42,482 nucleotides of DNA, taken from NCBI GenBank assembly GCA_027316975.1, contig DAHVFL010000001.1, positions 1 to 42,482 of the forward strand. The letters are read 5' to 3'. Below the pieces are notes generated by a model that saw only the letters and a program-made list of their open reading frames with translations, had not been told where the DNA came from and did not search any database. The position numbers and the translations under genes are program-made. The DNA comes from Chloroflexota bacterium. GTDB taxonomy: Bacteria > Chloroflexota > Ktedonobacteria > Ktedonobacterales > Ktedonobacteraceae. This document shows, piece after piece, positions 685 through 26,432 of the stretch (position 1 is its first letter; each line of letters starts with the position of its first letter).

Positions 685-2757
685 ATGCCGATTGCGCGGC
701 GATTAACTCTGGGCTTTCTGATTCCCGCCCTCATTGCATCTATTGCCCTGGGCACGATCGGCTTTCAGAGCGTCCAACTTCTTTCCCAGGAGTCATCGTT
801 CTACCAGGGCCTCTTGCGTACCTATACCTCTCTCACCACCGCGAAGAATGTTCTGCAACAGATGGACACCGCGGTGCAAGGGACGCTCAACGATGCATTA
901 CTACCCCAACCATCACGCGAGACCTTGCGTGAAGACCTGAACGCAGTGCGAGGATTCTCGACGCGCCTTGAGACCCTCCTCGAAAAGAATATCCAGCAAG
1001 ATGTTCTCGATCGCAGTGCCGACCTGGTGACACTCTTTACCCAGGCGGGACATAGCCGCCAGGTGGGAGAACAACGCTTCCTCTTTAATGAGACGCAGAG
1101 AACCTGGCAGGACTACCGCACCACACAGGAACAGGTGCTTGAAGAGATTGCCGCAGGCAATGCCAAAGGGGCATACATCCTGGAATATTCTCACGCAGAA
1201 CTGAACCTGACTTACACCCTGGGAGCGCTTGAGCGCCTCACCCTGTTCAACGCCAACCTGGTGACCTCAGTCCGCGATGCAACCAACGTTGAGGTAAACA
1301 GACTGGTGCTCATTACCTCACTGGCCGGGCTGGGGGTCTTGCTTGGCATTGGCATGGTGGGGTGGCTCGTCTCCAGTACCCTGGTGCGACGTTTGAGTGG
1401 ATTACGCTCGGTGGTGCAGTCGATTGAAAAGGGCCAGCTCGATGCTCGTCTGGACACGGTTGGGCGCGATGAAGTCTCCGCTGTCTCGGCAGGTGTCAAC
1501 GCCATGCTCGACACCATCATCAACGCACAGGTGATGGAAAAACTGCACAGGGAACTTCAAAGTCAGCACGAGGCGCTCAATATTGCCCATGAACATCTCA
1601 ATGAGGCCAATGCTCGCCTCGAAGCGCTGGCGACCACCGATGCCCTCACCGAATTGCCCAACCATCGTTCACTGGTCGCTACACTCGATAAGGAACTGGA
1701 GCGGGCGCAAAGCTACTATCGTTCCTGCTCCATCCTGTTTCTCGATATCGATCATTTCAAGGCCCTCAACGATGGCTACGGTCATGCGTCAGGAGACACG
1801 GTGCTGCATGAATTCGCCCGGTTGATTCGAGCACGCTTGCGGGGCATTGACACGGCTGGTCGCTGGGGAGGCGAGGAATTCGTGGCAATTCTGCCGGAAA
1901 TGACCAGAGAAGAAGCGCTGGCCTTTGCCGAGGAGATACGAATCGACGTGGCAGCCAACCTCTTCAGCGTTGGAGGCGGCACTCGCCTGACGTGTTCAAT
2001 TGGTGTGGCCAGCTATCCCACCCATGCGTCAGGACGAGAAGAACTGATGAACGCCGCTGATCAAGCAATGTACGCAGCCAAACGCCTGGGCCGCGACCAG
2101 GTGCGTAGAATCGACGACCCACTGGTACAGGCGCTCCTCTTAGAGAAAAATGAAGAGGGAGGGCGGGAAGAGTCGGCCCTGGCGGGCATCATGGCAGCCC
2201 TGAGCAGACTCGTGGAAGCTCACGATCCTTCAATAGGTCAGCACTCCTTCAAGGTCAGCGAGCTTCTGCCTGTCTTGATGCAGAACCTGGGTTTGCCTGC
2301 CGCCGAAGCGCAGATGATTGCGCTGGCCGGTCGTCTCCATGATATCGGCAAAATCTCTATCCCCGGCACCATCCTCTACAAGCCAGGGCGGCTGACGGAA
2401 GAGGAATGGGCGATCATACGCACCCATCCAGAGATCGGAGCAGAGGTTGTCAGCAGTATTCCGGTATTGCGTCCACTCGCTCCAGTAATTCGTTCGCACC
2501 ACGAGCGATGGGATGGTCAGGGGTATCCCGACCAACTTGCGGGGAAGGCGATTCCCTTTGGAGCGCGCATTATCGCGGTGGTCAATGCCTATACGGCCAT
2601 GACTGCCGATCGCCCTTATCAGAAGGCGCGCTCCCAGGCTCTGGCCCTGGAAGAGTTACAGCGTTGCGCGGGTACCCAATTCGATCCCCAGATCGTCGAG
2701 GCTATGGAGCGACTATTGCTGTCTCAGCAGTTGGCGGAGTTGGCAGAGATCGCTTGA
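685..2757 (+). CDS. Membrane sensor with HAMP-like segment, GGDEF diguanylate cyclase domain and C-terminal HD-GYP phosphodiesterase domain
   Basis: The GGDEF domain shows RWGGEEF, preceded by DIDHFKALNDGYGHASGD. The HD-GYP domain shows HDIGK and HHERWDGQGYP. An N-terminal TM helix (LTLGFLIPALIASIALGTIGF) follows the ATG at 685, and a second TM lies near LVLITSLAGLGVLLGIGMVGWLV. The ORF is open from TTG 526, with alternative starts at GTG 547 and ATG 631, so the start is uncertain. Confidence 0.85.
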   Translation: MPIARRLTLGFLIPALIASIALGTIGFQSVQLLSQESSFYQGLLRTYTSLTTAKNVLQQMDTAVQGTLNDALLPQPSRETLREDLNAVRGFSTRLETLLEKNIQQDVLDRSADLVTLFTQAGHSRQVGEQRFLFNETQRTWQDYRTTQEQVLEEIAAGNAKGAYILEYSHAELNLTYTLGALERLTLFNANLVTSVRDATNVEVNRLVLITSLAGLGVLLGIGMVGWLVSSTLVRRLSGLRSVVQSIEKGQLDARLDTVGRDEVSAVSAGVNAMLDTIINAQVMEKLHRELQSQHEALNIAHEHLNEANARLEALATTDALTELPNHRSLVATLDKELERAQSYYRSCSILFLDIDHFKALNDGYGHASGDTVLHEFARLIRARLRGIDTAGRWGGEEFVAILPEMTREEALAFAEEIRIDVAANLFSVGGGTRLTCSIGVASYPTHASGREELMNAADQAMYAAKRLGRDQVRRIDDPLVQALLLEKNEEGGREESALAGIMAALSRLVEAHDPSIGQHSFKVSELLPVLMQNLGLPAAEAQMIALAGRLHDIGKISIPGTILYKPGRLTEEEWAIIRTHPEIGAEVVSSIPVLRPLAPVIRSHHERWDGQGYPDQLAGKAIPFGARIIAVVNAYTAMTADRPYQKARSQALALEELQRCAGTQFDPQIVEAMERLLLSQQLAELAEIA

Positions 2758-2814
2758 TGGCCTACCATCCACAGGGCGAGCACTGCCAGGTGATGCCACG
2801 ACGCGAACTGCCAG

Positions 2815-3663
2815 CTACTTGCCAACTACCAGGATAAAGCCTACCATGGGAAGCGGGTAGTCGGATGCTTTGGTCAATGCCACGGCGCGGCGCGTTGTAG
2901 GATCAATCCGATCGTGGTTTCGACAGTAGTAATAGTAGAGCCCTGGCGTATCGAACAGAATAGTGATAGTCTGGCCACCAGGAACATCTTGACTTCCCGC
3001 CATGCGATGCAGGCCAGCGTCTACCGGGTTGATCGCTGCTGGCCAGTTCGGAACCTGTCCAAAGAAATGCGCGTCTTCATCGAAGTTGTGCCAGGAGATC
3101 GAAGCGGGCGAGCTGGCGGCGATAAACTCGCTCGCATATTCATCGTGACCTGCCAGGATTGAGTTGAGGGTTGCCGTTGGAAGGCCGCTGATGAGGCCCT
3201 GGACCCAGATAATCCCGTCCATCGCAATCGGAAAACCCCGGGCGTTCTTCCCTGCTGCCACACGAGAAAAAGTCCTATTCCATGTGGCCGCCGCGGTGTC
3301 GTAGTAGTGATACAGCCCGGGCTGTGCGAAGGTGAACTGAATGCTTTGCCCCGCTGCTACAGTGAGTGAGAATGATTGGAGATTCATGAAGGCGCTGCGA
3401 TCGGGGGTTGTTGTGAACACATGAGCCACGCTATCGTCGTTTTGCCATGTCACGATAGTACGAGGCTGAACCTGCAGGATAAATGGTGTAAAGAGGTCTT
3501 GAGCGCGTGGAATAGTTACACTCGCGCGTGGAGTTATTTTCGTTGCAGATGCACTACTACTCCTGACAGGAGTAGATGTGGTGCAACTCGTCGTGGTACT
3601 CAGGATACCTCCAAGAACAATGAGGACGAGCATGCTGTTCAGGCACAAACGCGCTTTTCGCAT
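2815..3663 (-). CDS. Secreted lipoprotein with two cupredoxin-like domains
   Basis: Signal/lipobox-like N-terminus MRKARLCLNSMLVLIVLGGILSTTTSC. The second domain has blue-copper-like ligand spacing (WHNFDEDAHFF ... YYYYCRNHD ... PLPM). The first domain (VTWQNDDSVAHVF ... GLYHYYD) lacks the Cys. GAAAGGA Shine-Dalgarno (SD) site upstream of the ATG at 3663. Confidence 0.55.
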   Translation of the reverse strand: MRKARLCLNSMLVLIVLGGILSTTTSCTTSTPVRSSSASATKITPRASVTIPRAQDLFTPFILQVQPRTIVTWQNDDSVAHVFTTTPDRSAFMNLQSFSLTVAAGQSIQFTFAQPGLYHYYDTAAATWNRTFSRVAAGKNARGFPIAMDGIIWVQGLISGLPTATLNSILAGHDEYASEFIAASSPASISWHNFDEDAHFFGQVPNWPAAINPVDAGLHRMAGSQDVPGGQTITILFDTPGLYYYYCRNHDRIDPTTRRAVALTKASDYPLPMVGFILVVGK

Positions 3664-3840
3664 ACAATTTCCTTTCAAGGTAGAGTGATACTAAAACTAG
3701 TATACCTTGCTGTAGAAACCGAACCGATCAACGCGGGGCCACCTCATTCTGCTGACCACACGCCCCATAAAGCCTGCATCAAGCTGCTGATACCATACCT
3801 GTAGCGTTGTTAAAGTCGCACGCGGGCCAAATTGGTCTAC

Positions 3841-6449: not shown

Positions 6450-7403
6450 TTATCCTTTCTCATCGGGAACAATCCATGTGCCGGTTTGACCGGCCAGCGC
6501 TTTACCGATAGTTTCGGGCATGGTTATCAGGGCGGCACGTCCCCCGCGTTCCAGGTATTGAATGACGGCCTGGATTTTAGGCCCCATGCTGCCTTTAGCA
6601 AAATGCCCCGCCTTATAATATTCTTTGGCCTCGCTCAAAGTGAAGCGTTCGAGATCGCGCTGGTCGGGCTTCTTGAAGTTGAGCGCGACTTTCTCTACTG
6701 CGGTTGAGATGAGCAGCAAATCGGCCTGTAACTCGCTGGCCAGCAGGCTGGAAGCCAGGTCTTTATCAATCACCGCCTCGATACCTGAGAGTTTGCCCAC
6801 GCCATCGCGCACAACCGGGACACCACCACCACCAACAGCAGCCACGATAAACCCGTTCTTGATGAGGGTATCGATGGCATCGCGCTCGATAATCTCCTCT
6901 GGCACAGGCGAGGGCACGACGCGCCGCCATCCTCGCCCGGCATCCTCGACCATCACCCAGCCTTCGCTCTTCATTTTCGCCTGGGCCTCTGCTTCTCCAT
7001 AGAATGAGCCAATCGGCTTGCTGGGAGTATGCAAGGCCGGGTCGTCGCTATGCACCCGCACCTGTGTCACCACCGTCACGCACTGGCGCGCGATGCCGCG
7101 CCGCAAAAATTCATTATGCAGCGCTTGCTGGATCATGTAGCCAATTGCGCCCTGCGTATCCGCGCCGCAGGAATCGAGCGGTACCGGGTGCAAGACGTGT
7201 CTGGAGAGTTCCGACCGCAGCAAAATAAAGCCCACCTGCGGCCCATTGCCATGCGTGACGACTACGTTCCAGCCCTGGGCAATCATCTCGGCGATATGCG
7301 TGGCTGTTTCTCGCACCGCGTCAAACTGGTCGGGTACCGTTTTGTGCGCCTCATCTTTAATGAGAGAATTCCCGCCGATAGCAACGACCGCTAATGTACT
7401 CAT
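6450..7403 (-). CDS. arcC: Carbamate kinase
   Basis: Typical N-terminus VVAIGGNSL, THGNGPQVG, and a 317-aa length. It overlaps the upstream gene by 4 nt (7400-7403). Confidence 0.9.
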   Translation of the reverse strand: MSTLAVVAIGGNSLIKDEAHKTVPDQFDAVRETATHIAEMIAQGWNVVVTHGNGPQVGFILLRSELSRHVLHPVPLDSCGADTQGAIGYMIQQALHNEFLRRGIARQCVTVVTQVRVHSDDPALHTPSKPIGSFYGEAEAQAKMKSEGWVMVEDAGRGWRRVVPSPVPEEIIERDAIDTLIKNGFIVAAVGGGGVPVVRDGVGKLSGIEAVIDKDLASSLLASELQADLLLISTAVEKVALNFKKPDQRDLERFTLSEAKEYYKAGHFAKGSMGPKIQAVIQYLERGGRAALITMPETIGKALAGQTGTWIVPDEKG

Positions 7404-8618: not shown

Positions 8619-9989
8619 TTACATTCTCTGCCACAGGGCCTGCGATAGCTCTCTGGCTCGCGCAGCAATACGCGCTTCATCGACGGTCAGCAGCTGGCGG
8701 TTGCGCATCAGCCAGCGACCGGCCACCATCGTTGAATTGACGTGCAGCCCATCCATGCCAAAAATCATGTGCCAGGGAAAATTCTCTTCGCTCATCGGCG
8801 TGGGCGGCACGTAATCGAGCAGAACGATATCGGCAGCCGCGCCAACGCTCAATTCGCCAACACGCGGAAAATCCGCGCAGAACGGGCGAAAGATGGCATC
8901 CACGATACGCGCATTGTTTTGAAAGGCCATTTTCCATACAAGATTCCCCGGCATGGCGCGTGGATCGGCCAGCGCGAGCTTATGCAACAAATAGGCAGCC
9001 TTCATTTCTTGCAGCATGTTCATGCTGAAACCATCAGTGCCCAGTCCCACATTGACGCCAGCCGCCAGCATCTCTTCGACAGGAGCGCGCCCGACGGCAT
9101 TGTTCATATTCGAGCGCGGGTTATGCACACAATTAGTTTGCGTTTCCGCCAGCCGCCCAATTTCCCCGCTATTGACATGCACGCAGTGCGCGGCGATGCT
9201 GCGCGGCCCCAGGATGAGATGGGCCTCAAGACGTTCAACCACTCGCTTCTGATAGCGCGTCATGCTATCGTTTTCATCCGAAATATCCTCGGCAACATGA
9301 ATATGAAAGCCAACTCCCAATCTATCTGCCCCGGCGGCGCAGCGTTCGAGCGTGGCAGAGCTAAGCGTGAATGATGCGTGCAAGCCATAACTGGCGGAGA
9401 TCATGCCCGTTTGAGCCAGTTCGCTGCGTCCGGCGCGCAGCGAACTGATGAAGCGCTCATTTTCGCGCATACTACCCGCGATTGCCTCAAGCCCATCGCG
9501 ATCAGAAACCTCGTAGGCCAGGCACGCGCGAATCCCCGCATCTTCGACGGCATCGGCAATGGCATCCAGGCTCCCCTCGATAGCATTGGGGCTGGCGTGA
9601 TGATCGACGACGCAGGTTACACCGCTGCGAATGGCATCCGCCATATACACATCGACGCTGGCGCGCGTATCCTCCAACGTTAGCGCCTTATCCAATCGCC
9701 ACCACAACCGCTCCAGAATTTCAGGAAAGTTGCGCGGGGCTTCGCCAGCAACAGCCATACCCCGCGCAAACGCGCTATAAAAGTGCGTATGCGTGCAAAG
9801 CAAGCCGGGCATAATTAACCCGCCGTGAGCATCGATGTAATGCGCGCCTGGATACTGCTGGAGCAGCGCCACATCGCTGCCAAGAGCAGCTATGCGCCCG
9901 CCTCGCACCAGCACCGCGCCATGCTCAATAAGCTGGTTATGCTCGCCTCCTGTCACAACGGTGCCATTGCCTATGAGGATGTCTGACAT
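8619..9989 (-). CDS. ssnA: SsnA-like amidohydrolase (chlorohydrolase/aminohydrolase family)
   Basis: N-terminal GNGTVVTGG..., the metal-binding PGLLCTHTHFYSAFARG signature characteristic of SsnA-type proteins, an internal HVAE, and a late GTDG. Confidence 0.8.
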   Translation of the reverse strand: MSDILIGNGTVVTGGEHNQLIEHGAVLVRGGRIAALGSDVALLQQYPGAHYIDAHGGLIMPGLLCTHTHFYSAFARGMAVAGEAPRNFPEILERLWWRLDKALTLEDTRASVDVYMADAIRSGVTCVVDHHASPNAIEGSLDAIADAVEDAGIRACLAYEVSDRDGLEAIAGSMRENERFISSLRAGRSELAQTGMISASYGLHASFTLSSATLERCAAGADRLGVGFHIHVAEDISDENDSMTRYQKRVVERLEAHLILGPRSIAAHCVHVNSGEIGRLAETQTNCVHNPRSNMNNAVGRAPVEEMLAAGVNVGLGTDGFSMNMLQEMKAAYLLHKLALADPRAMPGNLVWKMAFQNNARIVDAIFRPFCADFPRVGELSVGAAADIVLLDYVPPTPMSEENFPWHMIFGMDGLHVNSTMVAGRWLMRNRQLLTVDEARIAARARELSQALWQRM

Positions 9990-21256: not shown

Positions 21257-21640
21257 ATGAAAAAACTTGATGTAAGCGAATTACGCGAAGGCCGTGAACT
21301 GGTAACACGCATCAATGAGATTCTGCGCCTGGTCAAAGAAGACGGCGAGACAATCGAGATTACTGACAAAGGTAAAATTGTTGCGCATGTCGTGCCGACA
21401 AATATGCCACAAAAGGCTATCGATGACAAACTGGCTGCGTCTTTGAGAGGAATTGATGAGCTAGCAGCTAAAATCGGAGCGCGATGGAAAAGCAATTTGG
21501 ATGCAGTTGAAGCAGTTCGTGATGTAAGAGATGACACCGCGTGGAATGATTTAAAACAAATAGCTACAGAACTTGATCCTTATTGGCCCGAAAATATTGG
21601 TGCAGTTGAAACTATACACGATTGTAGACGAGAAGTGTGA
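21257..21640 (+). CDS. Phd/YefM-type antitoxin-like protein with duplicated C-terminal motif; no partner toxin
   Basis: The N-terminus (LDVSELREGRELVTRINEILRLVKEDGETIEITDKGKIVAHVVP) fits the Phd/YefM fold pattern. The C-terminal half holds two related modules (...ARWKSNLDAVEAVRDVRDD / ...PYWPENIGAVETIHDCRRE). AGGAGAA SD upstream of the ATG at 21257. Confidence 0.6.
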   Translation: MKKLDVSELREGRELVTRINEILRLVKEDGETIEITDKGKIVAHVVPTNMPQKAIDDKLAASLRGIDELAAKIGARWKSNLDAVEAVRDVRDDTAWNDLKQIATELDPYWPENIGAVETIHDCRREV

Positions 21641-21670
21641 GGAGCCGACTCATTAAAGGAGAAAAACTAC

Positions 21671-21892
21671 ATGCCTCTTGATCCCCAGGTCGAAGCCTAC
21701 ATGACTCAGATGGCGGCATTAAACGTACCCCCGCTCAATACATTTACCCCTGAGGCCATTCGCCAGTTAATACAAATGCAGATCGACTCTGGTGCCAGCC
21801 AGTTCGGCGAGCCGGAGCCGATTGCTCACGTTGAAAACCGCGCCATTCCCGGTCCGGCTGGCGACATCCCGGTCAGAATCTATAGTTGCTAA
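21671..21892 (+). pseudogene. 5' fragment of an HSL-family (HGGG/GDSAG) esterase gene, truncated by the insertion
   Basis: MPLDPQVEAYM...NRAIPGPAGDIPVRIYSC* is a typical N-terminus of this esterase family. It stops right before the expected HGGG oxyanion motif, which reappears at 25743. AAAGGAG SD. Confidence 0.8.
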
Positions 21893-21971
21893 GAATCTGG
21901 GCAAAAAGTATCTGCCCAAACCTTCGCTTTCACCTACGCCCGTTGACGAACGAACTGGGCGGGCGGTTGGA

Positions 21972-22220
21972 CTACGGCCAACCGTTTTGTTGTTTCCATG
22001 CGTGATGCCGTTGCATCAGTAAGGCTTTGACGGCTTGCCTGTCTTTGCAAGTGCGCAGTTCCTCATCTCCCCGGCGGTGCTCAATGTTGATGGCAGCATT
22101 AAGATCGGCGTGTGCCTGATAACCGCACACCTGACAGCAAAACGTTTGCTGATCGGGTCGGTTGGCTCGGTCTGGATAATGACATATGCTACACTCTTGC
22201 GAGGAGTAGGCACTTTTGAC
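21972..22220 (-). other. tnpB: In-frame continuation of tnpB after the TGA: zinc ribbon and RuvC-III segment
   Basis: It is in the same frame as 22221-23372 and open for 82 codons to TAG at 21974-21972. Translation: VKSAYSSQECSICHYPDRANRPDQQTFCCQVCGYQAHADLNAAINIEHRR.... Confidence 0.8.
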
Positions 22221-23372
22221 TCACGTGGCGACGACGCCGCGCTTGACAGCATTCCAGGCGATCTGTTCGGGGATGTGCGCGAGGTTGGAGGCACGCATGT
22301 AGGCATTCATGGCGCGTGCCTTGTGCTTCATGGTCGCCACTGAGAGATGTTCATACGCAAACTGCGCACCCTCATGCTCGGCAAAGCACTGGTTGACGGC
22401 GCGGTTGATTTCTTGACGGACGTGCCGGGTGAGACGTTGCCCGCTCTTGCTACTGGTGGAGGGAAGCTTCTCGACATTCTTCTTTTCGAGGCATTTGCGG
22501 AGCTTGGCCTTCCGCCGCCGCTTCTCGCGGTCGCGCTTCTGTCGCTCTCGCAGTTTGCCATGAAACGTGCCGTAGTGCTTGCCTGCACTGGTGGTCAGGA
22601 AGTTGGCGATGCCGACATCCACCCCGACGACCGGGGCTGCCGGTTTGGTCTGCACCAGAACGGTTTCATCATAGCTCAGGGTCAACCACCATCCATTACC
22701 GCGCTTGTTGAGCGTCACACTGGTATTACTGGTCTTGCCCGCAAGCGCCTTGCGATGATAGTCTGCCAGCTTGATGGGAACAAATAACTGTTTGCGGAAG
22801 GCGAGGGTGCTGATCTTGAGCCAGTAGTCAAAGCTAGAGTCTTGCGTGGGTTCAAGCACCGCTACATTGACGTTGGCCTGGATGCAGGTCTGTCGAAGTG
22901 TCGGGATGTTCCATTCGCGCCACACTGGTTCTTTGGCCTCTGCATCCAACGTGCCTTCGGCCTCTTGCTGGTGATAGTCCAGCAGGTCATCCAAATAGTC
23001 TTGATACGCCTGTGTGCGATTGGTGCGCCATGACTTCGCGATGCCTGCCGATTGCTGAATAGCAACCCGGTGCCAGCGTTCGGAGAGCGGCGTTGCAAAG
23101 CAGGTGGCCCGAAACTTGTCGGGGTGCTCATCGGTACAAAAAAGGGTGACATACTGTTGGCAGAGCGATAGGTAGACCTGAGCGAGATCGTCGAGCGCGG
23201 CAAGCTTGCCCGCATTGGTCGCTTCCAGTCGGATATGGGTCACAGCTTTGGTGATGGTCTGCGGTTCGTCTTGCCCGGTGTGACGGTAGTTACGCTGCTT
23301 CATGATCATGGTCCTACTTCGCTCTGTCTCTTTATACCTCTTCTTTGTAAGAGGGGAAGATGCGGTAGTCAT
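22221..23372 (-). CDS. tnpB: TnpB (IS200/IS605-type RNA-guided endonuclease family), reading frame ending at an in-frame TGA before the Zn-ribbon/RuvC-III part
   Basis: RuvC-I is PVVGVDVGIANFLT and RuvC-II is AQFAYEHLSV, with a basic linker KRDREKRRRKAKLRK. The ATG at 23372 lies 18 nt after the preceding ORF's stop, with a GTAGGAG SD overlapping that stop. Confidence 0.8.
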   Translation of the reverse strand: MTTASSPLTKKRYKETERSRTMIMKQRNYRHTGQDEPQTITKAVTHIRLEATNAGKLAALDDLAQVYLSLCQQYVTLFCTDEHPDKFRATCFATPLSERWHRVAIQQSAGIAKSWRTNRTQAYQDYLDDLLDYHQQEAEGTLDAEAKEPVWREWNIPTLRQTCIQANVNVAVLEPTQDSSFDYWLKISTLAFRKQLFVPIKLADYHRKALAGKTSNTSVTLNKRGNGWWLTLSYDETVLVQTKPAAPVVGVDVGIANFLTTSAGKHYGTFHGKLRERQKRDREKRRRKAKLRKCLEKKNVEKLPSTSSKSGQRLTRHVRQEINRAVNQCFAEHEGAQFAYEHLSVATMKHKARAMNAYMRASNLAHIPEQIAWNAVKRGVVAT

Positions 23373-23390
23373 CCCCTCTTACTCCTACAT

Positions 23391-23861
23391 CTACGAGACG
23401 CGCTGCATGGGACGCGACAATAGAGGTGTCCTCTGCTGCTCACACCAGTTCAGACATACAAACTCCCATTCTGGCAGATACCGCTCGACACTGTCATAGG
23501 AGGTGTACCCCTCGGCGCGAATGCGCTTGATGAGGGTCTTGGCCTCCTCGATATCCGGGAAGCACGCGAACTTCCCCCGCAGTTTGATGCACCCCTGTTT
23601 GCTATGAATACAGCATCTTCCATCGAGGGTGCTGTAGATCGTGTAGCCCCGGTAGTACTCATAGAACAGGGTATAGATGGTGTTCTCGTTACCGATGATC
23701 GGGTCGGTCTCGTGCAGCGTCAACCGCGCCCGCTCGACCAACTCAAGGGGCCGTGCGACCGTCGAGGGTGCGCGATGCTCTCTGACAGGGGCAGGCGCGG
23801 GTTGCCTGCGCCTGCGGTTCTTTGGCAGGCGATGCGGGTTCCCGTACTTCCTACGCTGCAT
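23391..23861 (-). CDS. 156-aa protein of unknown function with an Arg-rich N-terminus and a Cys-containing C-domain
   Basis: The ATG at 23861 has a GAAGGAG SD and lies 11 nt inside the end of the sigma-like ORF. The N-terminus is MQRRKYGNPHRLPKNRRRRQPAPAP. The C-domain is YRGYTIYSTLDGRCCIHSKQGCIKLRGKFACFPDIEEAK.... I recognise no family. Confidence 0.55.
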   Translation of the reverse strand: MQRRKYGNPHRLPKNRRRRQPAPAPVREHRAPSTVARPLELVERARLTLHETDPIIGNENTIYTLFYEYYRGYTIYSTLDGRCCIHSKQGCIKLRGKFACFPDIEEAKTLIKRIRAEGYTSYDSVERYLPEWEFVCLNWCEQQRTPLLSRPMQRVS

Positions 23862-24996
23862 GGCTCGTACTCCTTCGTGCTTTGAGGAAATCGATGGCCG
23901 TTTTCTTCGCGACGCCTGCCTCTTTTGAAAGCCTCGGACTGGTGACTCGCACACCCTGCGCTTCCAGTCGCGTACAGACTGTCTCAAGCTTCTGCTGGCG
24001 TTGTCGCGCTCTGCCCTCTTTGGGGGTCTCGCTGCGGTGCAGGCGCAGGAACATCAGCGCGTGGTCAATGCTGATTCCTACCTCTTTTGCCAGCCGGCGT
24101 CCGGTGACGATCACACCCTGCCCTTGCAGGTCGAGACATCCCTGCAACAGCGCGGCTTCCTGCTCCGGGGTAATGGTGTAGGTATTGTGGGCATCAGGGT
24201 AGAGAATGTAGGGTTTGCCGTTCCTTGTGCCGAGCGTTGCCTTGCCAAGAGCCAGCGCTCTCAACCGGGCGATGGCATCCCGTTCGGTGGTCAGGATGAG
24301 CCTGCGGTCAAGCCCTAAGAGACGGGCAATCTCGTTGGTGGTGTGCCTGCGCTCGTTGTCATCGGAAAGGCCGTAGCGCAAGCGGAAAATGGCCTGGGCG
24401 CGTGGGGAGAGATAGGAGAGCAGTGTGTCCACCTGGGCGCGTTGCTGCGGGTCACGCTCCGGCGCGGCCTCGGTGGGCAACAGAGGTGTGGCCTGCGGTT
24501 CTTCCAGGTCGTCGGTGTCGAACCATTCCATTTGCTCATCCAGACTGAGCAGGTGATCGAGCGCATCGATCAGGTTGGCGTCTCCCCGTTCGCGCGCCCG
24601 TGTCCATACCCCGTGGTTGATTTTGACCAGACCATCGTTGATGCTGGCACCTTTGACCCTCCCGCGCAGCCAGGCCGCAAGGTAGCTGGTCAGGTCTTCA
24701 ATCTGGGTGAGATCGCTGCGGATAATCACCTCGACCACCGTCAGGTTGGCCTCCCCGATAAGGTCAGGTAGATCGCGGTGATAGCGTGACTTGGGACAGA
24801 GATCAATGGCGAAGTACTTGGCGAGCGACAGGTAGCTCTCGATCAGTTGGTGCTTGATTTGAGTCGGATTGTCGGCTGTTGGAAGACCGGTGATGAGGTG
24901 CCGACGTTGCTCTTCCGAAAGGCGCGGCAGGCGTTTCAGGTCAGCGTAGTAGTACGCTTGATCGTAGGTGGTGTAGTTGGTGATGGTTTGTGTCAT
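23851..24996 (-). CDS. Divergent sigma-70-family-like protein with two extra C-terminal HTH-like modules
   Basis: Region-2-like: LIESYLSLAKYFA...DLIGEANLTVVEVI...LTSYLAAWLRGRV. Region-4-like: LSPRAQAIFRLRYGLSDDNERRHTTNEIARLLGLDRRLILTTERDAIARLR. Repeated tail: VTGRRLAKEVGISIDHALMFLR and VTSPRLSKEAGVAKKTAIDFLK. GGAAGGGA SD. Confidence 0.6.
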   Translation of the reverse strand: MTQTITNYTTYDQAYYYADLKRLPRLSEEQRRHLITGLPTADNPTQIKHQLIESYLSLAKYFAIDLCPKSRYHRDLPDLIGEANLTVVEVIIRSDLTQIEDLTSYLAAWLRGRVKGASINDGLVKINHGVWTRARERGDANLIDALDHLLSLDEQMEWFDTDDLEEPQATPLLPTEAAPERDPQQRAQVDTLLSYLSPRAQAIFRLRYGLSDDNERRHTTNEIARLLGLDRRLILTTERDAIARLRALALGKATLGTRNGKPYILYPDAHNTYTITPEQEAALLQGCLDLQGQGVIVTGRRLAKEVGISIDHALMFLRLHRSETPKEGRARQRQQKLETVCTRLEAQGVRVTSPRLSKEAGVAKKTAIDFLKARRSTSHAA

Positions 24997-25122
24997 GCGT
25001 GTTCCCTTCCAATCGTGTTATCGGGTGAAAACTTGACAGGTCGGGCGTCTCTGTGCCATGAATCTAGGCTGAGAGTGCCCGTAGGACTACTTAACAGGGG
25101 ACTACGTGTGTGCTCTCGTATG

Positions 25123-25165
25123 CTGACCTTGCCATGTACTAGACGGCAAGGTCAGTTTCTTTTCG
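25123..25165 (+). terminator. Plus-strand intrinsic-terminator-like hairpin inside the leader of the sigma-like operon
   Basis: CTGACCTTGCC-(11 nt)-GGCAAGGTCAG followed by TTTCTTTTCG. No plus-strand gene lies upstream. On the minus strand it has no U-tail. Confidence 0.4.
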
Positions 25166-25220
25166 TGTCTTCTTCTCTTTATCACCTCCTTAATATCATC
25201 CTTTGGCATACTCTGATAGG

Positions 25221-25249
25221 AGTATAAAATAATCTTCAAGAAAAGTCAA
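25221..25249 (-). promoter_or_regulatory. Candidate promoter of the sigma-like / small ORF / tnpB operon
   Basis: On the minus strand: TTGACT (25249-25244), a 17-nt spacer, then TATACT (25226-25221). This implies a leader of about 215 nt. Confidence 0.4.
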
Positions 25250-25367
25250 CTCTATTAGTGCTTTATAATCTGTTTTACATATTTAACAATATTTTTCATA
25301 CGTGAGTATGCAGAAATATCTATCTTGATGCTATGTTGGGAAGGCTAGCACATGGATAGGAAAGGAG

Positions 25368-25396
25368 TTGACCGCAGGGATCATACATACTATAAT
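25368..25396 (+). promoter_or_regulatory. Near-consensus sigma-70 promoter of the HTH gene
   Basis: TTGACC, a 17-nt spacer, then TATAAT, about 30 nt upstream of the start codon. Confidence 0.55.
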
Positions 25397-25425
25397 AGGC
25401 CCATTACTGTTAAGAGAGGGTGCAT

Positions 25426-25629
25426 ATGCCACAGCCACAAGAAAAGCTGCTTACCGTTAAGCAGGTTGCCGATATAATGAGCGTGGATGAAAAGACTATC
25501 CGTAGCTGGATACAGAGGGGTGATTTAAGGGCGGTCAATATAGGTCGTCTACGTCCTGAATATCGTATCCGGCCTACCGACCTTGATGAATTTATCTCAC
25601 ACAGACAAACAGATCGATCTGATAATTAA
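25426..25629 (+). CDS. Small excisionase-family (MerR-like) helix-turn-helix DNA-binding protein
   Basis: [34 protein letters not shown]...[12 protein letters not shown] matches the Xis/AlpA-type HTH pattern. GTG 25420 is an alternative start. Confidence 0.7.
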
Positions 25630-25654
25630 TTATTTTGCTCAATCAAACTGTAAA

Positions 25655-25731
25655 AAGCTCTGCGGCTAACACCTGTCAAAGTTGTTGCACTTCTCTCTGC
25701 TTTATTTTAAGGGGTGTTAGCCGCAGAGCTT
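25655..25731. repeat. Terminal hairpin of the insertion (19-bp perfect stem, 39-nt loop)
   Basis: AAGCTCTGCGGCTAACACC (25655-25673) pairs with GGTGTTAGCCGCAGAGCTT (25713-25731). The right arm ends 2-5 nt before esterase coding sequence resumes. Confidence 0.85.
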
Positions 25732-25733
25732 CT

Positions 25734-26432
25734 TATTTCTTTCATGGAGGTGGTTGGGTGATCTGTAATCTCGACACCCACGATGGTCTTTGCCGCAGCC
25801 TGGCGAACGGAACACATTGTATCGTCGTATCGGTAGACTACCGGCTCGCGCCCGAACACAAATTTCCTGCCGCGCCCGAAGATTGCTACGCCGCGACTTC
25901 GTGGGTAGCCGAAAACGCACCTCGGTTCAACGGCGACCCCGCACGCATAGCTGTTGGCGGGGATAGCGCGGGCGGCAATCTCGCAGCCGTTATCTCACGG
26001 ATGGCGCGCGATAAGGGAGGCCCGGCGTTGAGCTTTCAGCTACTCATCTATCCCGCCACCGTCTTTACCATAAGATACCCTTCCGTGGAAGAAAATGGCG
26101 AAGGCTATGGCTTGACCGAGCAGGATATGACCTGGTTCACGAACCATTACTTGAATAACGCGGAAGAGAAGCAGAACCCTCTCGCGTCCCCGCTGCTGGC
26201 CGCTGATCTGAGTAGATTACCTCCCGCGCTCGCCATTACCGCCGAGTACGACCCGCTCAGAGACGAAGGCGAGATGTACGGTCAGAAACTGAAAGATGCT
26301 GGCGTACCCGTCACCATCACCCGCTACGATGGTATGACGCACGGCTTTGTAGGTATGCCCTACGATAAGGGCAGGCAAGCGATTGCCGAATCCTGCGTCG
26401 CGCTGCGAGCAGCTTTTGCTCTCAAAACGTGA
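25734..26432 (+). pseudogene. 3' part of the split HSL-family esterase gene
   Basis: [17 protein letters not shown] (oxyanion HGGG), [13 protein letters not shown] (nucleophile elbow GDSAG), and a late DPLRDEG...HGF (Asp/His of the triad). The upstream part of ORF 25635 is element sequence. Confidence 0.8.

Follow-up and report, generated by a model that had tools for sequence, protein, structure and literature searches.

A sigma-70-family protein, an orphan small protein and a structured leader ahead of tnpB in a mobile element family of Chloroflexota

The element and its genes

The DNA considered here is a stretch of 42,482 nt from a soil Chloroflexota bacterium (contig DAHVFL010000001.1), referred to as the window, in which 3852 bp of inserted DNA at positions 21882-25733 interrupt an Abhydrolase_3 esterase gene at 21881/21882 and ~25733/25734. 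The junctions were placed by comparison with an intact esterase orthologue (P0121, locus L109; 87% identity), and they bear out the proposal of a preliminary description of this DNA that the genes in question lie inside a mobile insertion. The inserted DNA is a decaying copy of a family of mobile elements of ~3.7-3.9 kb found in Ktedonobacteria/Chloroflexota. Its right-hand part is an ordinary unit of TnpB and omega RNA that has no TnpA and whose TnpB is of the nuclease type. Ahead of tnpB lies a cassette made up of a divergent helix-turn-helix (HTH) gene, divergent promoter-like sites, a leader of ~160 nt, a gene for a sigma-like protein, an overlapping small gene and a stem-loop. It is this sigma-based accessory cassette that is new, while the OMEGA (obligate mobile element-guided activity)/TnpB transposon that carries it is known.

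The sigma-like protein

The sigma-like gene occupies positions 23851..24996 of the minus strand, from ATG 24996 to TAG 23853-23851, the end that had been given for it in the preliminary description. Judged by its sequence and predicted fold, the encoded protein of 381 aa is a true but divergent member of the sigma-70 family. Its domains are, in order, sigma2, a degenerate linker/sigma3, sigma4 and two C-terminal HTH-like repeats (residues ~277-320 and 325-380), of which some relatives have three. TIGR02937 matched residues 49-246 with 53.4 bits (cutoff 42.9) and Pfam Sigma70_r4 matched residues 193-247 with 24.3 bits (cutoff 24.1); Pfam Sigma70_r2 alone stayed under its cutoff (15.9 vs 24). 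When a profile of the family (A1) was compared with the PDB, it found chains of SigA, SigB and RpoS over sigma2 and sigma4, at values from 3.5e-16 for SigA, the best, to 1e-9, and it placed residues 47-137 on SigA region 2. Sigma4 fragments in the PDB were matched at 1.9e-8 to 1.7e-7. A model of the protein made with AlphaFold2 (AF2) had a predicted local distance difference test (pLDDT) value of 74.7, and the top 50 matches of this model to the PDB in Foldseek were all sigma factors (E 7.7e-6 to 1e-3, ~270 columns), with low template modelling scores that are due to differing domain orientation. The likeness to sigma-70 regions 2 and 4, first noticed from the letters alone together with the two extra HTH-like modules, is agreed upon by TIGR02937, Sigma70_r4, the PDB profile and Foldseek.

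A DLIxEaNL motif kept throughout the family (DLIGEANL in the window) resembles the core-binding region 2.2. Region 4 is group-1-like (RLRYGL), with best specific matches to SigA, SigB and RpoS, and the protein may bind core RNA polymerase. Searches of Pfam, NCBIfam, PHROGs and PADLOC gave sigma matches only, so that membership of a known transposase family could be rejected. The defence models of PADLOC returned a weak region-4 match to MzaA (E 0.0038) and generic Cas12f matches for TnpB, and none linked the three genes to a known anti-phage defence system.

The small protein

The small gene (23391..23861, minus strand) runs from ATG 23861-23859 to TAG 23393-23391 and encodes an orphan basic protein of 156 aa. 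Its ATG sits inside the end of the sigma-like open reading frame (ORF), with an overlap of 11 nt, and is preceded at a distance of 8 nt by a GAAGGAG Shine-Dalgarno (SD) sequence at 23876-23870. Both overlap and SD had been pointed out earlier and both stand; an overlap of 11-14 nt is repeated across homologous loci, and the small gene is regarded as translationally coupled to the sigma-like gene. The protein consists of an Arg/Lys-rich N-terminal tail and a conserved, beta-rich domain of ~90 aa with CCxH...C...C, and its invariant residues are H50, D53, Y67, Y73, Y76, C83, C84, H86, Y119 and E126. There are 283 homologues (49 representatives at 50% identity), which occur only with the sigma-like family. 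No model of Pfam, NCBIfam, PHROG or PADLOC matched the protein, a profile search of 1.84 billion representatives returned only 49 short members, all of this same family, and an AF2 model of low confidence (pLDDT 60.6) was beta-rich and had no match in the PDB. In two assemblies (L031/L032, 5848-7578) the sigma-like and small proteins are naturally fused in frame (P0015), which hints that the two proteins act as a complex.

tnpB, the spacer and the right end

In the window tnpB extends over 21972..23303 on the minus strand, from a conserved start at ATG 23303 (MKQR) to TAG 21974-21972, and matches the OrfB_IS605, guided_TnpB and Cas12f1-like_TNB (49 bits) profiles. It encodes the acidic residues D (VGVDVG), E (AYEHL) and D (HADLNAA) together with CxxC..CxxC. 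An in-frame TGA at 22223-22221, missed in the preliminary description, stands at an Arg that is invariant across five homologues and is probably a CGA>TGA change. It cuts the protein before the Zn-finger/RuvC-III part, which continues in frame to the TAG. As read from the nucleotides, tnpB of this copy is a pseudogene while the sigma-like and small genes are intact.

Between the small ORF and tnpB there is a conserved stem-loop, AAGAGGGGA...TCCCCTCTT (23349..23380, minus strand), followed by a purine-rich spacer. A spacer of 83-98 nt with such a stem-loop precedes the next gene in nearly all relatives. The stem-loop is found with all TnpB types and at a serine-recombinase locus, and the sequence of its stem differs between loci (L066, L072, L009). 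The preliminary description had tnpB begin at ATG 23372, 18 nt after the TAG of the small ORF and with an SD overlapping that stop, and had the two genes translationally coupled. ATG 23372 falls within the stem-loop, the conserved start is ATG 23303 instead, and since the stem-loop and a spacer of 87 nt intervene, there is no support for tight translational coupling between the small ORF and tnpB. It is plausible, nonetheless, that the three genes form one operon.

The right end of the element (21882..22110, minus strand) terminates in a conserved ...TTCTTAGCAACTAT at 21882. Eight loci with the TnpB lineage of the window have their sequence in common up to GCAACTAT and diverge beyond it, which points to eight independent insertion sites. 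The region has a conserved, multi-stem, omega-RNA-like fold with invariant internal stems and a terminal hairpin that shows compensatory changes, and it is predicted to be an omega-RNA-like scaffold overlapping the 3' end of tnpB. Rfam matched no family in 21500-26000 except for a chance match to a lncRNA (long non-coding RNA).

The leader and the upstream region

Immediately ahead of the sigma-like gene is a structured 5' leader of ~160 nt (24997..25155, minus strand), comprising a P1 hairpin (25155-23), an invariant ACGTAG...CTACGGG block and an anti-SD helix in which CCC..CC.GTC pairs with the GGAAGGG SD of the sigma-like gene. Among 23 distinct leaders (alignment A7), compensatory changes were seen in nine pairs, seven of them in the P1 hairpin. 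Covariation amounted to 0.250, as against 0.147 in shuffles (0/500), and collapsed in slid controls. Conservation of the leader exceeds that of the coding genes, and it has no Rfam family. It is a candidate for a new cis-regulatory RNA that would be able to sequester the SD of the sigma-like gene.

Two divergent promoter-like sites, both of the sigma-70 type and both matches to the consensus only, are located in the AT-rich intergenic region. One faces the sigma-like and small genes, and possibly tnpB (25221..25249, minus strand; TTGACT-17-TATACT, 10/12), and the other faces the HTH gene (25368..25396, plus strand; TTGACC-17-TATAAT, 11/12). The latter gene (25420..25629, plus strand) is divergent from the sigma operon and encodes an HTH_17/excisionase-family protein of 69 aa (HTH_17 51 bits, TIGR01764 41 bits). 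Ahead of the leader the sequence varies between loci, and usually there is a small HTH gene, of the XRE type at ~25 loci and of the HTH_17 type at ~10.

A GIY-YIG domain often adjoins the upstream HTH gene or is fused to it. Genes of this kind lie just upstream of the leader in L001 (4900-5283), L029 (1653-2207), L041 (585-1163), L042 (956-2059), L061 (53-649) and L095 (3688-4218), where they are fused or next to HTH_3, or have NUMOD3 repeats like homing endonucleases of the I-TevI type. In the window, TTAAGGAGGTGAT at 25181-25193 (minus strand), near the predicted 5' end of the leader, is an extended complement of the 3' end of 16S rRNA. No convincing ORF follows it, and related loci have at this place AAGGAG and then mini-ORFs of two codons; the site may be an mRNA stabiliser or belong to a leader peptide.

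Distribution and exchange of TnpB partners

More than 217 homologues of the sigma-like protein were found, mostly on short contigs. A scan of species-representative genomes contained only five true relatives, all in Chloroflexota (Ktedonobacteraceae, Ktedonosporobacter and one metagenome-assembled genome of Chloroflexia), and viral contigs contained none. Gene neighbourhoods were counted after reducing 80 metagenome loci, plus others, to non-redundant loci of Ktedonobacteria/Chloroflexota. The small ORF is present in 32 of the 37 loci that have room for it. Downstream of the sigma-like gene, 29 loci have TnpB in 25 cases, a large serine recombinase in one and neither detected in three. The preliminary description had asked whether the three genes form a conserved neighbourhood across Chloroflexota, and they do so at many independent insertion sites. 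Ratios of nonsynonymous to synonymous substitution (dN/dS) were 0.17-0.38 for the sigma-like gene, 0.11-0.29 for the small gene and 0.09-0.13 for tnpB, indicating that all three are under purifying selection.

At least three lineages (~443, ~411 and ~520 aa) can be told apart among the TnpB partners, with a fourth in L068. These lineages are barely alignable with one another (BLASTP E 0.003-0.12), have right-end termini of their own (GCAACTAT, GAAAGGCAG or GTCAG) and interleave on the tree of the sigma-like proteins, and sigma-like proteins ~81% identical to that of the window are paired with different ones. The RuvC D-E-D triad is invariant in the TnpB lineage of the window and present in the L008 type, and the Zn finger is kept in all three lineages. 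TnpB of the L005 type has VV.G(D)LS where the RuvC-II Glu would be expected and keeps the Asp of RuvC-I and RuvC-III; possibly its active site is rearranged, in the manner of the RIIr kind described in PMC10691335.

Several loci depart from the usual arrangement. L009 (=L096; 5506-9667), from Ktedonosporobacter, has HTH_17, the sigma-like gene, the small gene and the stem-loop, followed by a large serine recombinase of 688 aa and no TnpB, and L073 has the sigma-like and small genes with no nuclease gene. In L036 the downstream gene is that of IscB (2160-3795; NF040563, 277.6 bits), directly behind the cassette and with its HEARO omega RNA (RF02033, 2308-2540, 75.6 bits). The position of this IscB element coincides exactly with what is left of the right end (...GATGTTTTGAAAGGCAG) of a TnpB element of the L005 type that has suffered an internal deletion, and IscB was rejected as a further regular partner, L036 being a single case of nesting. 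In L039 (~9400-9738) at most ~140 nt separate the right end, GCAACTAT (9409), of a reverse-oriented TnpB element of the window type from the 3' end of a tnpB of the L008 type, apparently in a tail-to-tail arrangement of the two elements. From L036 and L039 it follows that OMEGA elements in these genomes pile up at each other's ends. In L008 an ORF of 489 aa with a Y1_Tnp domain (404-1873) adjoins the HTH_17 gene, and it is the only TnpA-like gene beside any member of the family.

The target gene and the left junction

The native esterase sequence runs to ...AGAATCTAT (21881) and resumes from ~25734. Its 5' fragment, the target (21671..21881, plus strand), aligns to the orthologue up to ...GTCAGAATCTAT, and the antisense of the end of this fragment would be the guide of the omega RNA. 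The 3' fragment of the gene occupies 25734..26432 (plus strand). At the left junction ~36 bp of the esterase, coding for PPDGDGPFPVLV, are absent, and a palindrome (25651..25735) with arms of 30 nt, 19 bp of them perfect, ends exactly there; none was found at the equivalent place in five related loci. The left junction thus resembles the outcome of a deletion or repair event more than a clean transposon end. That the 19-bp hairpin (25656-25729) is an inverted copy of target sequence was rejected, as GVSRRASY is not native to the intact esterase orthologue. No second copy of the leader or of the element was found within the window.

Other candidates for a left end were also considered. A break in homology between L001 and L040 was rejected, being caused by an IS5-like element with a DDE transposase (L040, 61-846), which in this copy, 99% identical to the L001 element, has inserted 240 bp ahead of the start of the sigma-like gene; the cassette region is itself targeted by other insertion sequences (ISs). 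The P1 hairpin of the leader and the hairpin behind the small ORF are doubtful candidates for a left-end hairpin of the TnpA type, as neither resembles the right-end hairpins, which vary with TnpB lineage.

Interpretation of the cassette

Our preferred interpretation, to which we would give about an even chance, is that the cassette is the element's own transcription-control unit and gates how the mobility nuclease and its omega RNA are expressed. In such a unit the HTH protein and the leader would keep the cassette off. Once expressed, the sigma-like protein would bind the core RNA polymerase of the host, while the small protein would serve it as partner or antagonist, and the resulting complex could then drive transcription, or let it pass, across the stem-loop and on into the mobility gene and the guide RNA. 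A specific interface between the sigma-like protein and TnpB is unlikely because sigma modules that are close relatives of one another occur with three or more barely alignable TnpB lineages and, at one locus, with a serine recombinase. Generic control of whichever mobility gene lies downstream fits better with TnpB lineages that are interchangeable, each with its own right end, and with the serine-recombinase locus. The divergent promoter-like sites, the covarying leader, the stem-loop and the presence of an upstream HTH gene in most loci would also favour a role in control.

A number of observations weigh against this interpretation. The sigma operon itself has a host-type promoter-like site. 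The Trp dyad of region 2.3 and the residues of region 4.2 that read the -35 element are altered in the sigma-like protein, so that promoter melting and recognition by it are unproven, and no target promoter or shared promoter motif was seen for it, though no formal motif search was run. The small protein has no anti-sigma fold recognisable by Pfam, NCBIfam or a comparison of its AF2 model with the PDB, and its gene is missing at a few loci, for example L059. The sole serine-recombinase locus, L009, has an in-frame stop (6571-6573) in its sigma-like gene. No left end of the mobile unit could be placed, and the cassette could therefore lie outside a canonical TnpB IS. The likeness to Tn916, discussed below, would be one of gene order only.

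The cassette of HTH, sigma-like and small genes might instead be a separate module, selfish or of the host, whose stem-loop region is a preferred landing site for OMEGA elements, in which case its linkage to tnpB would reflect insertion preference or hitch-hiking. It could, for example, be a sigma/anti-sigma or addiction pair whose read-through transcription is exploited by OMEGA elements of the IS200/IS605 type. Consistent with this, homology between loci with different TnpB types stops at ~23314-23340, 10-40 nt short of the tnpB start, OMEGA elements nest at each other's ends (L036, L039), a cassette without a nuclease gene exists in L073, and GIY-YIG genes resembling those of homing endonucleases also gather beside the cassette. 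However, three to four TnpB lineages stand at the identical spot and in the same orientation with almost no 5' sequence specific to the lineage, which leaves no room for a separate left end. In the window, moreover, a single interrupted gene encloses both cassette and tnpB, the TnpB right end forming the border, and copies consisting of the cassette alone are infrequent (3/29). On balance we consider a separate module unlikely, if still to be reckoned with.

It seems distinctly unlikely that the sigma-like and small proteins work directly with a nuclease-competent TnpB and its omega RNA, in polymerase loading or site opening, or that they form mobility machinery of an unknown kind that replaces TnpA. 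The preliminary description had proposed a module for RNA-guided transcription or targeting of the TldR or dCas12f-sigmaE kind. In its explicit form, TnpB and omega RNA at a DNA target would recruit RNA polymerase together with the sigma-like protein, or recruitment would go the other way, resulting in RNA-guided transcription or transcription-assisted targeting as an independent parallel of dCas12f-sigmaE. The gene content does parallel that of dCas12f systems, in which a Cas12f/TnpB-like effector is accompanied by an HTH protein and a sigma factor (PMC12259090, PMC10691335), the linkage of the sigma-like gene to tnpB is very consistent (25/29 loci) and the extra HTH modules of the sigma-like protein are unexplained. 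The known effectors are nuclease-dead, however, whereas here the D-E-D triad is found in two of the three TnpB lineages and the Zn finger in all, under strong purifying selection. The pairing of one sigma clade with at least three unalignable TnpB lineages makes a conserved docking surface unlikely, the guide lies at the mobile right end and changes with every insertion, and the copy in the window has a dead tnpB yet intact sigma-like and small genes. With the triad retained in this way, a standard mobile right end and exchangeable TnpBs, the proposal finds no support, and we find RNA-guided recruitment quite improbable.

It is very improbable that the sigma-like and small proteins are mobility machinery, or an essential cofactor of transposition, in the slot that TnpA has in IS200/IS605, with HTH modules that bind the element ends or the target and a Cys/His/Tyr-rich small protein that might be catalytic. 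In favour of such a role, the element has no Y1 or serine TnpA in spite of at least eight insertion sites, the module sits in the usual position of tnpA and is common to several TnpB lineages as TnpA families are, the small protein has the ten invariant residues listed above and the split esterase encloses all 3.85 kb, of which the cassette is part. Against it, right ends that differ wholly between TnpB lineages make a single end-recognising transposase unlikely, sigma2 and sigma4 with a core-binding-like motif point to RNA polymerase and not to recombination, neither signatures nor fold matches of HUH, DDE, serine or tyrosine recombinases were seen for the small protein, and the Y1 transposase gene beside the L008 cassette makes TnpA acting in trans plausible.

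Transposons of TnpB and IscB are regarded as minimal, consisting of the nuclease, the guide RNA and sometimes TnpA. The family described here, with more than 200 sigma homologues and dozens of loci, carries in addition a sigma-70-family protein of its own, an orphan partner and a structured leader, and this accessory module is kept by purifying selection and swapped between unrelated TnpB lineages. Two new families come with it, those of the orphan small protein and of the covarying leader RNA. If the cassette does have the regulatory role that we prefer for it, it would offer a way into the control of tnpB and omega-RNA expression, and to our knowledge it would be the first case of an OMEGA transposon bringing its own sigma factor. 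It also represents a second, independent linkage of sigma factor and TnpB beside dCas12f-sigmaE, in which the TnpB is mobile and keeps its nuclease residues, and the presence of such a linkage on a mobile element bears on how these partnerships arise before exaptation. Should the sigma-like and small proteins act jointly with a nuclease-competent TnpB, the family would be an active-nuclease counterpart, and possibly an evolutionary forerunner, of dCas12f-sigmaE.

Comparison with known systems

The dCas12f-sigmaE or Sigma-TnpB systems of Bacteroidota have a nuclease-dead effector without the ZF/RuvC-III part and an extracytoplasmic function (ECF) RpoE of ~190 aa, and their loci are immobile (Altae-Tran et al. 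2023, PMC10691335; Hoffmann et al. 2025, PMC12259090). Like the element, they link a sigma-70-family gene and an HTH gene to an RNA-guided protein of the TnpB/Cas12f type. In contrast to them, the TnpBs of the element have the triad in two of three lineages, the Zn finger in all and a mobile right end with an omega-RNA-like scaffold, and the sigma-like protein has 381 aa, a group-1-like region 4 and two extra HTH modules. The element further differs in its interposed orphan small protein, its interchangeable TnpB partner and its Chloroflexota host. Assignment to dCas12f-sigmaE fails because none of the defining features of that system, the dead effector, the ECF RpoE and the immobility, is found. 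TldR proteins, for their part, are TnpB-like repressors, nuclease-dead and immobile (PMC10705468); the element shares with them a TnpB-family protein in an unusual neighbourhood, and differs in being mobile and in having the triad in two of three lineages.

In Tn916, Orf9 represses orf7, which is sigma-like, and orf8, and the products of these two genes activate read-through into xis-int (PMC5812530). The orf7 gene has been called a sigma factor (PMC12229494), Orf7 being a short sigma-like protein. The order of a divergent HTH gene, a sigma-like gene, a small second gene and mobility genes is shared between Tn916 and the element, and Tn916 has RNA control in its leader region. Tn916 is the nearest functional precedent for the control proposed here, by a likeness of gene order alone. 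It is a conjugative element whose downstream genes encode Xis and a tyrosine integrase, whereas the element of the window has an RNA-guided nuclease. Operons of sigma and anti-sigma factors (rpoE-rseA, sigW-rsiW) are similar in that a small partner, overlapping and co-translated, comes directly after the sigma gene and has a conserved Cys/His cluster. Unlike these partners, the small protein of the element has no anti-sigma domain or zinc-binding anti-sigma (ZAS) motif, is predicted to be beta-rich and has an Arg-rich tail.

Among insertion sequences, Pfam and NCBIfam identified neither the Y1 (HUH) TnpA of IS200/IS605 nor a serine TnpA in the element of the window. The serine-recombinase TnpA of IS607 with its MerR-like HTH has no equivalent here, the HTH_17 protein of 69 aa being without a catalytic domain (transpos_IS607 E 0.055). 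With regard to the end features of IS200/IS605, the right-end hairpin is present and the left junction is not a clean joint, showing the palindrome and target deletion described above. The preliminary description was thus correct in finding a misfit with the IS200/IS605 and IS607 layouts, and we found no description in the literature of a transposon combining the sigma-like protein, the small protein and TnpB. The closest resemblance in the right-hand part is to the TnpA-less, IS1341-type members of IS200/IS605 (OMEGA), with which the element shares a TnpB with RuvC and Zn finger, a scaffold over the 3' end of tnpB, the presumed use of the flank as guide and many insertion sites; no target duplication was seen. 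IS1341-type TnpB elements are ~1.3-1.6 kb in length and have tnpB alone. The element described here, by contrast, adds to this plan a conserved upstream cassette of ~2.2 kb, in which an HTH gene, a leader, a sigma-like gene, a small protein gene and a stem-loop precede tnpB.

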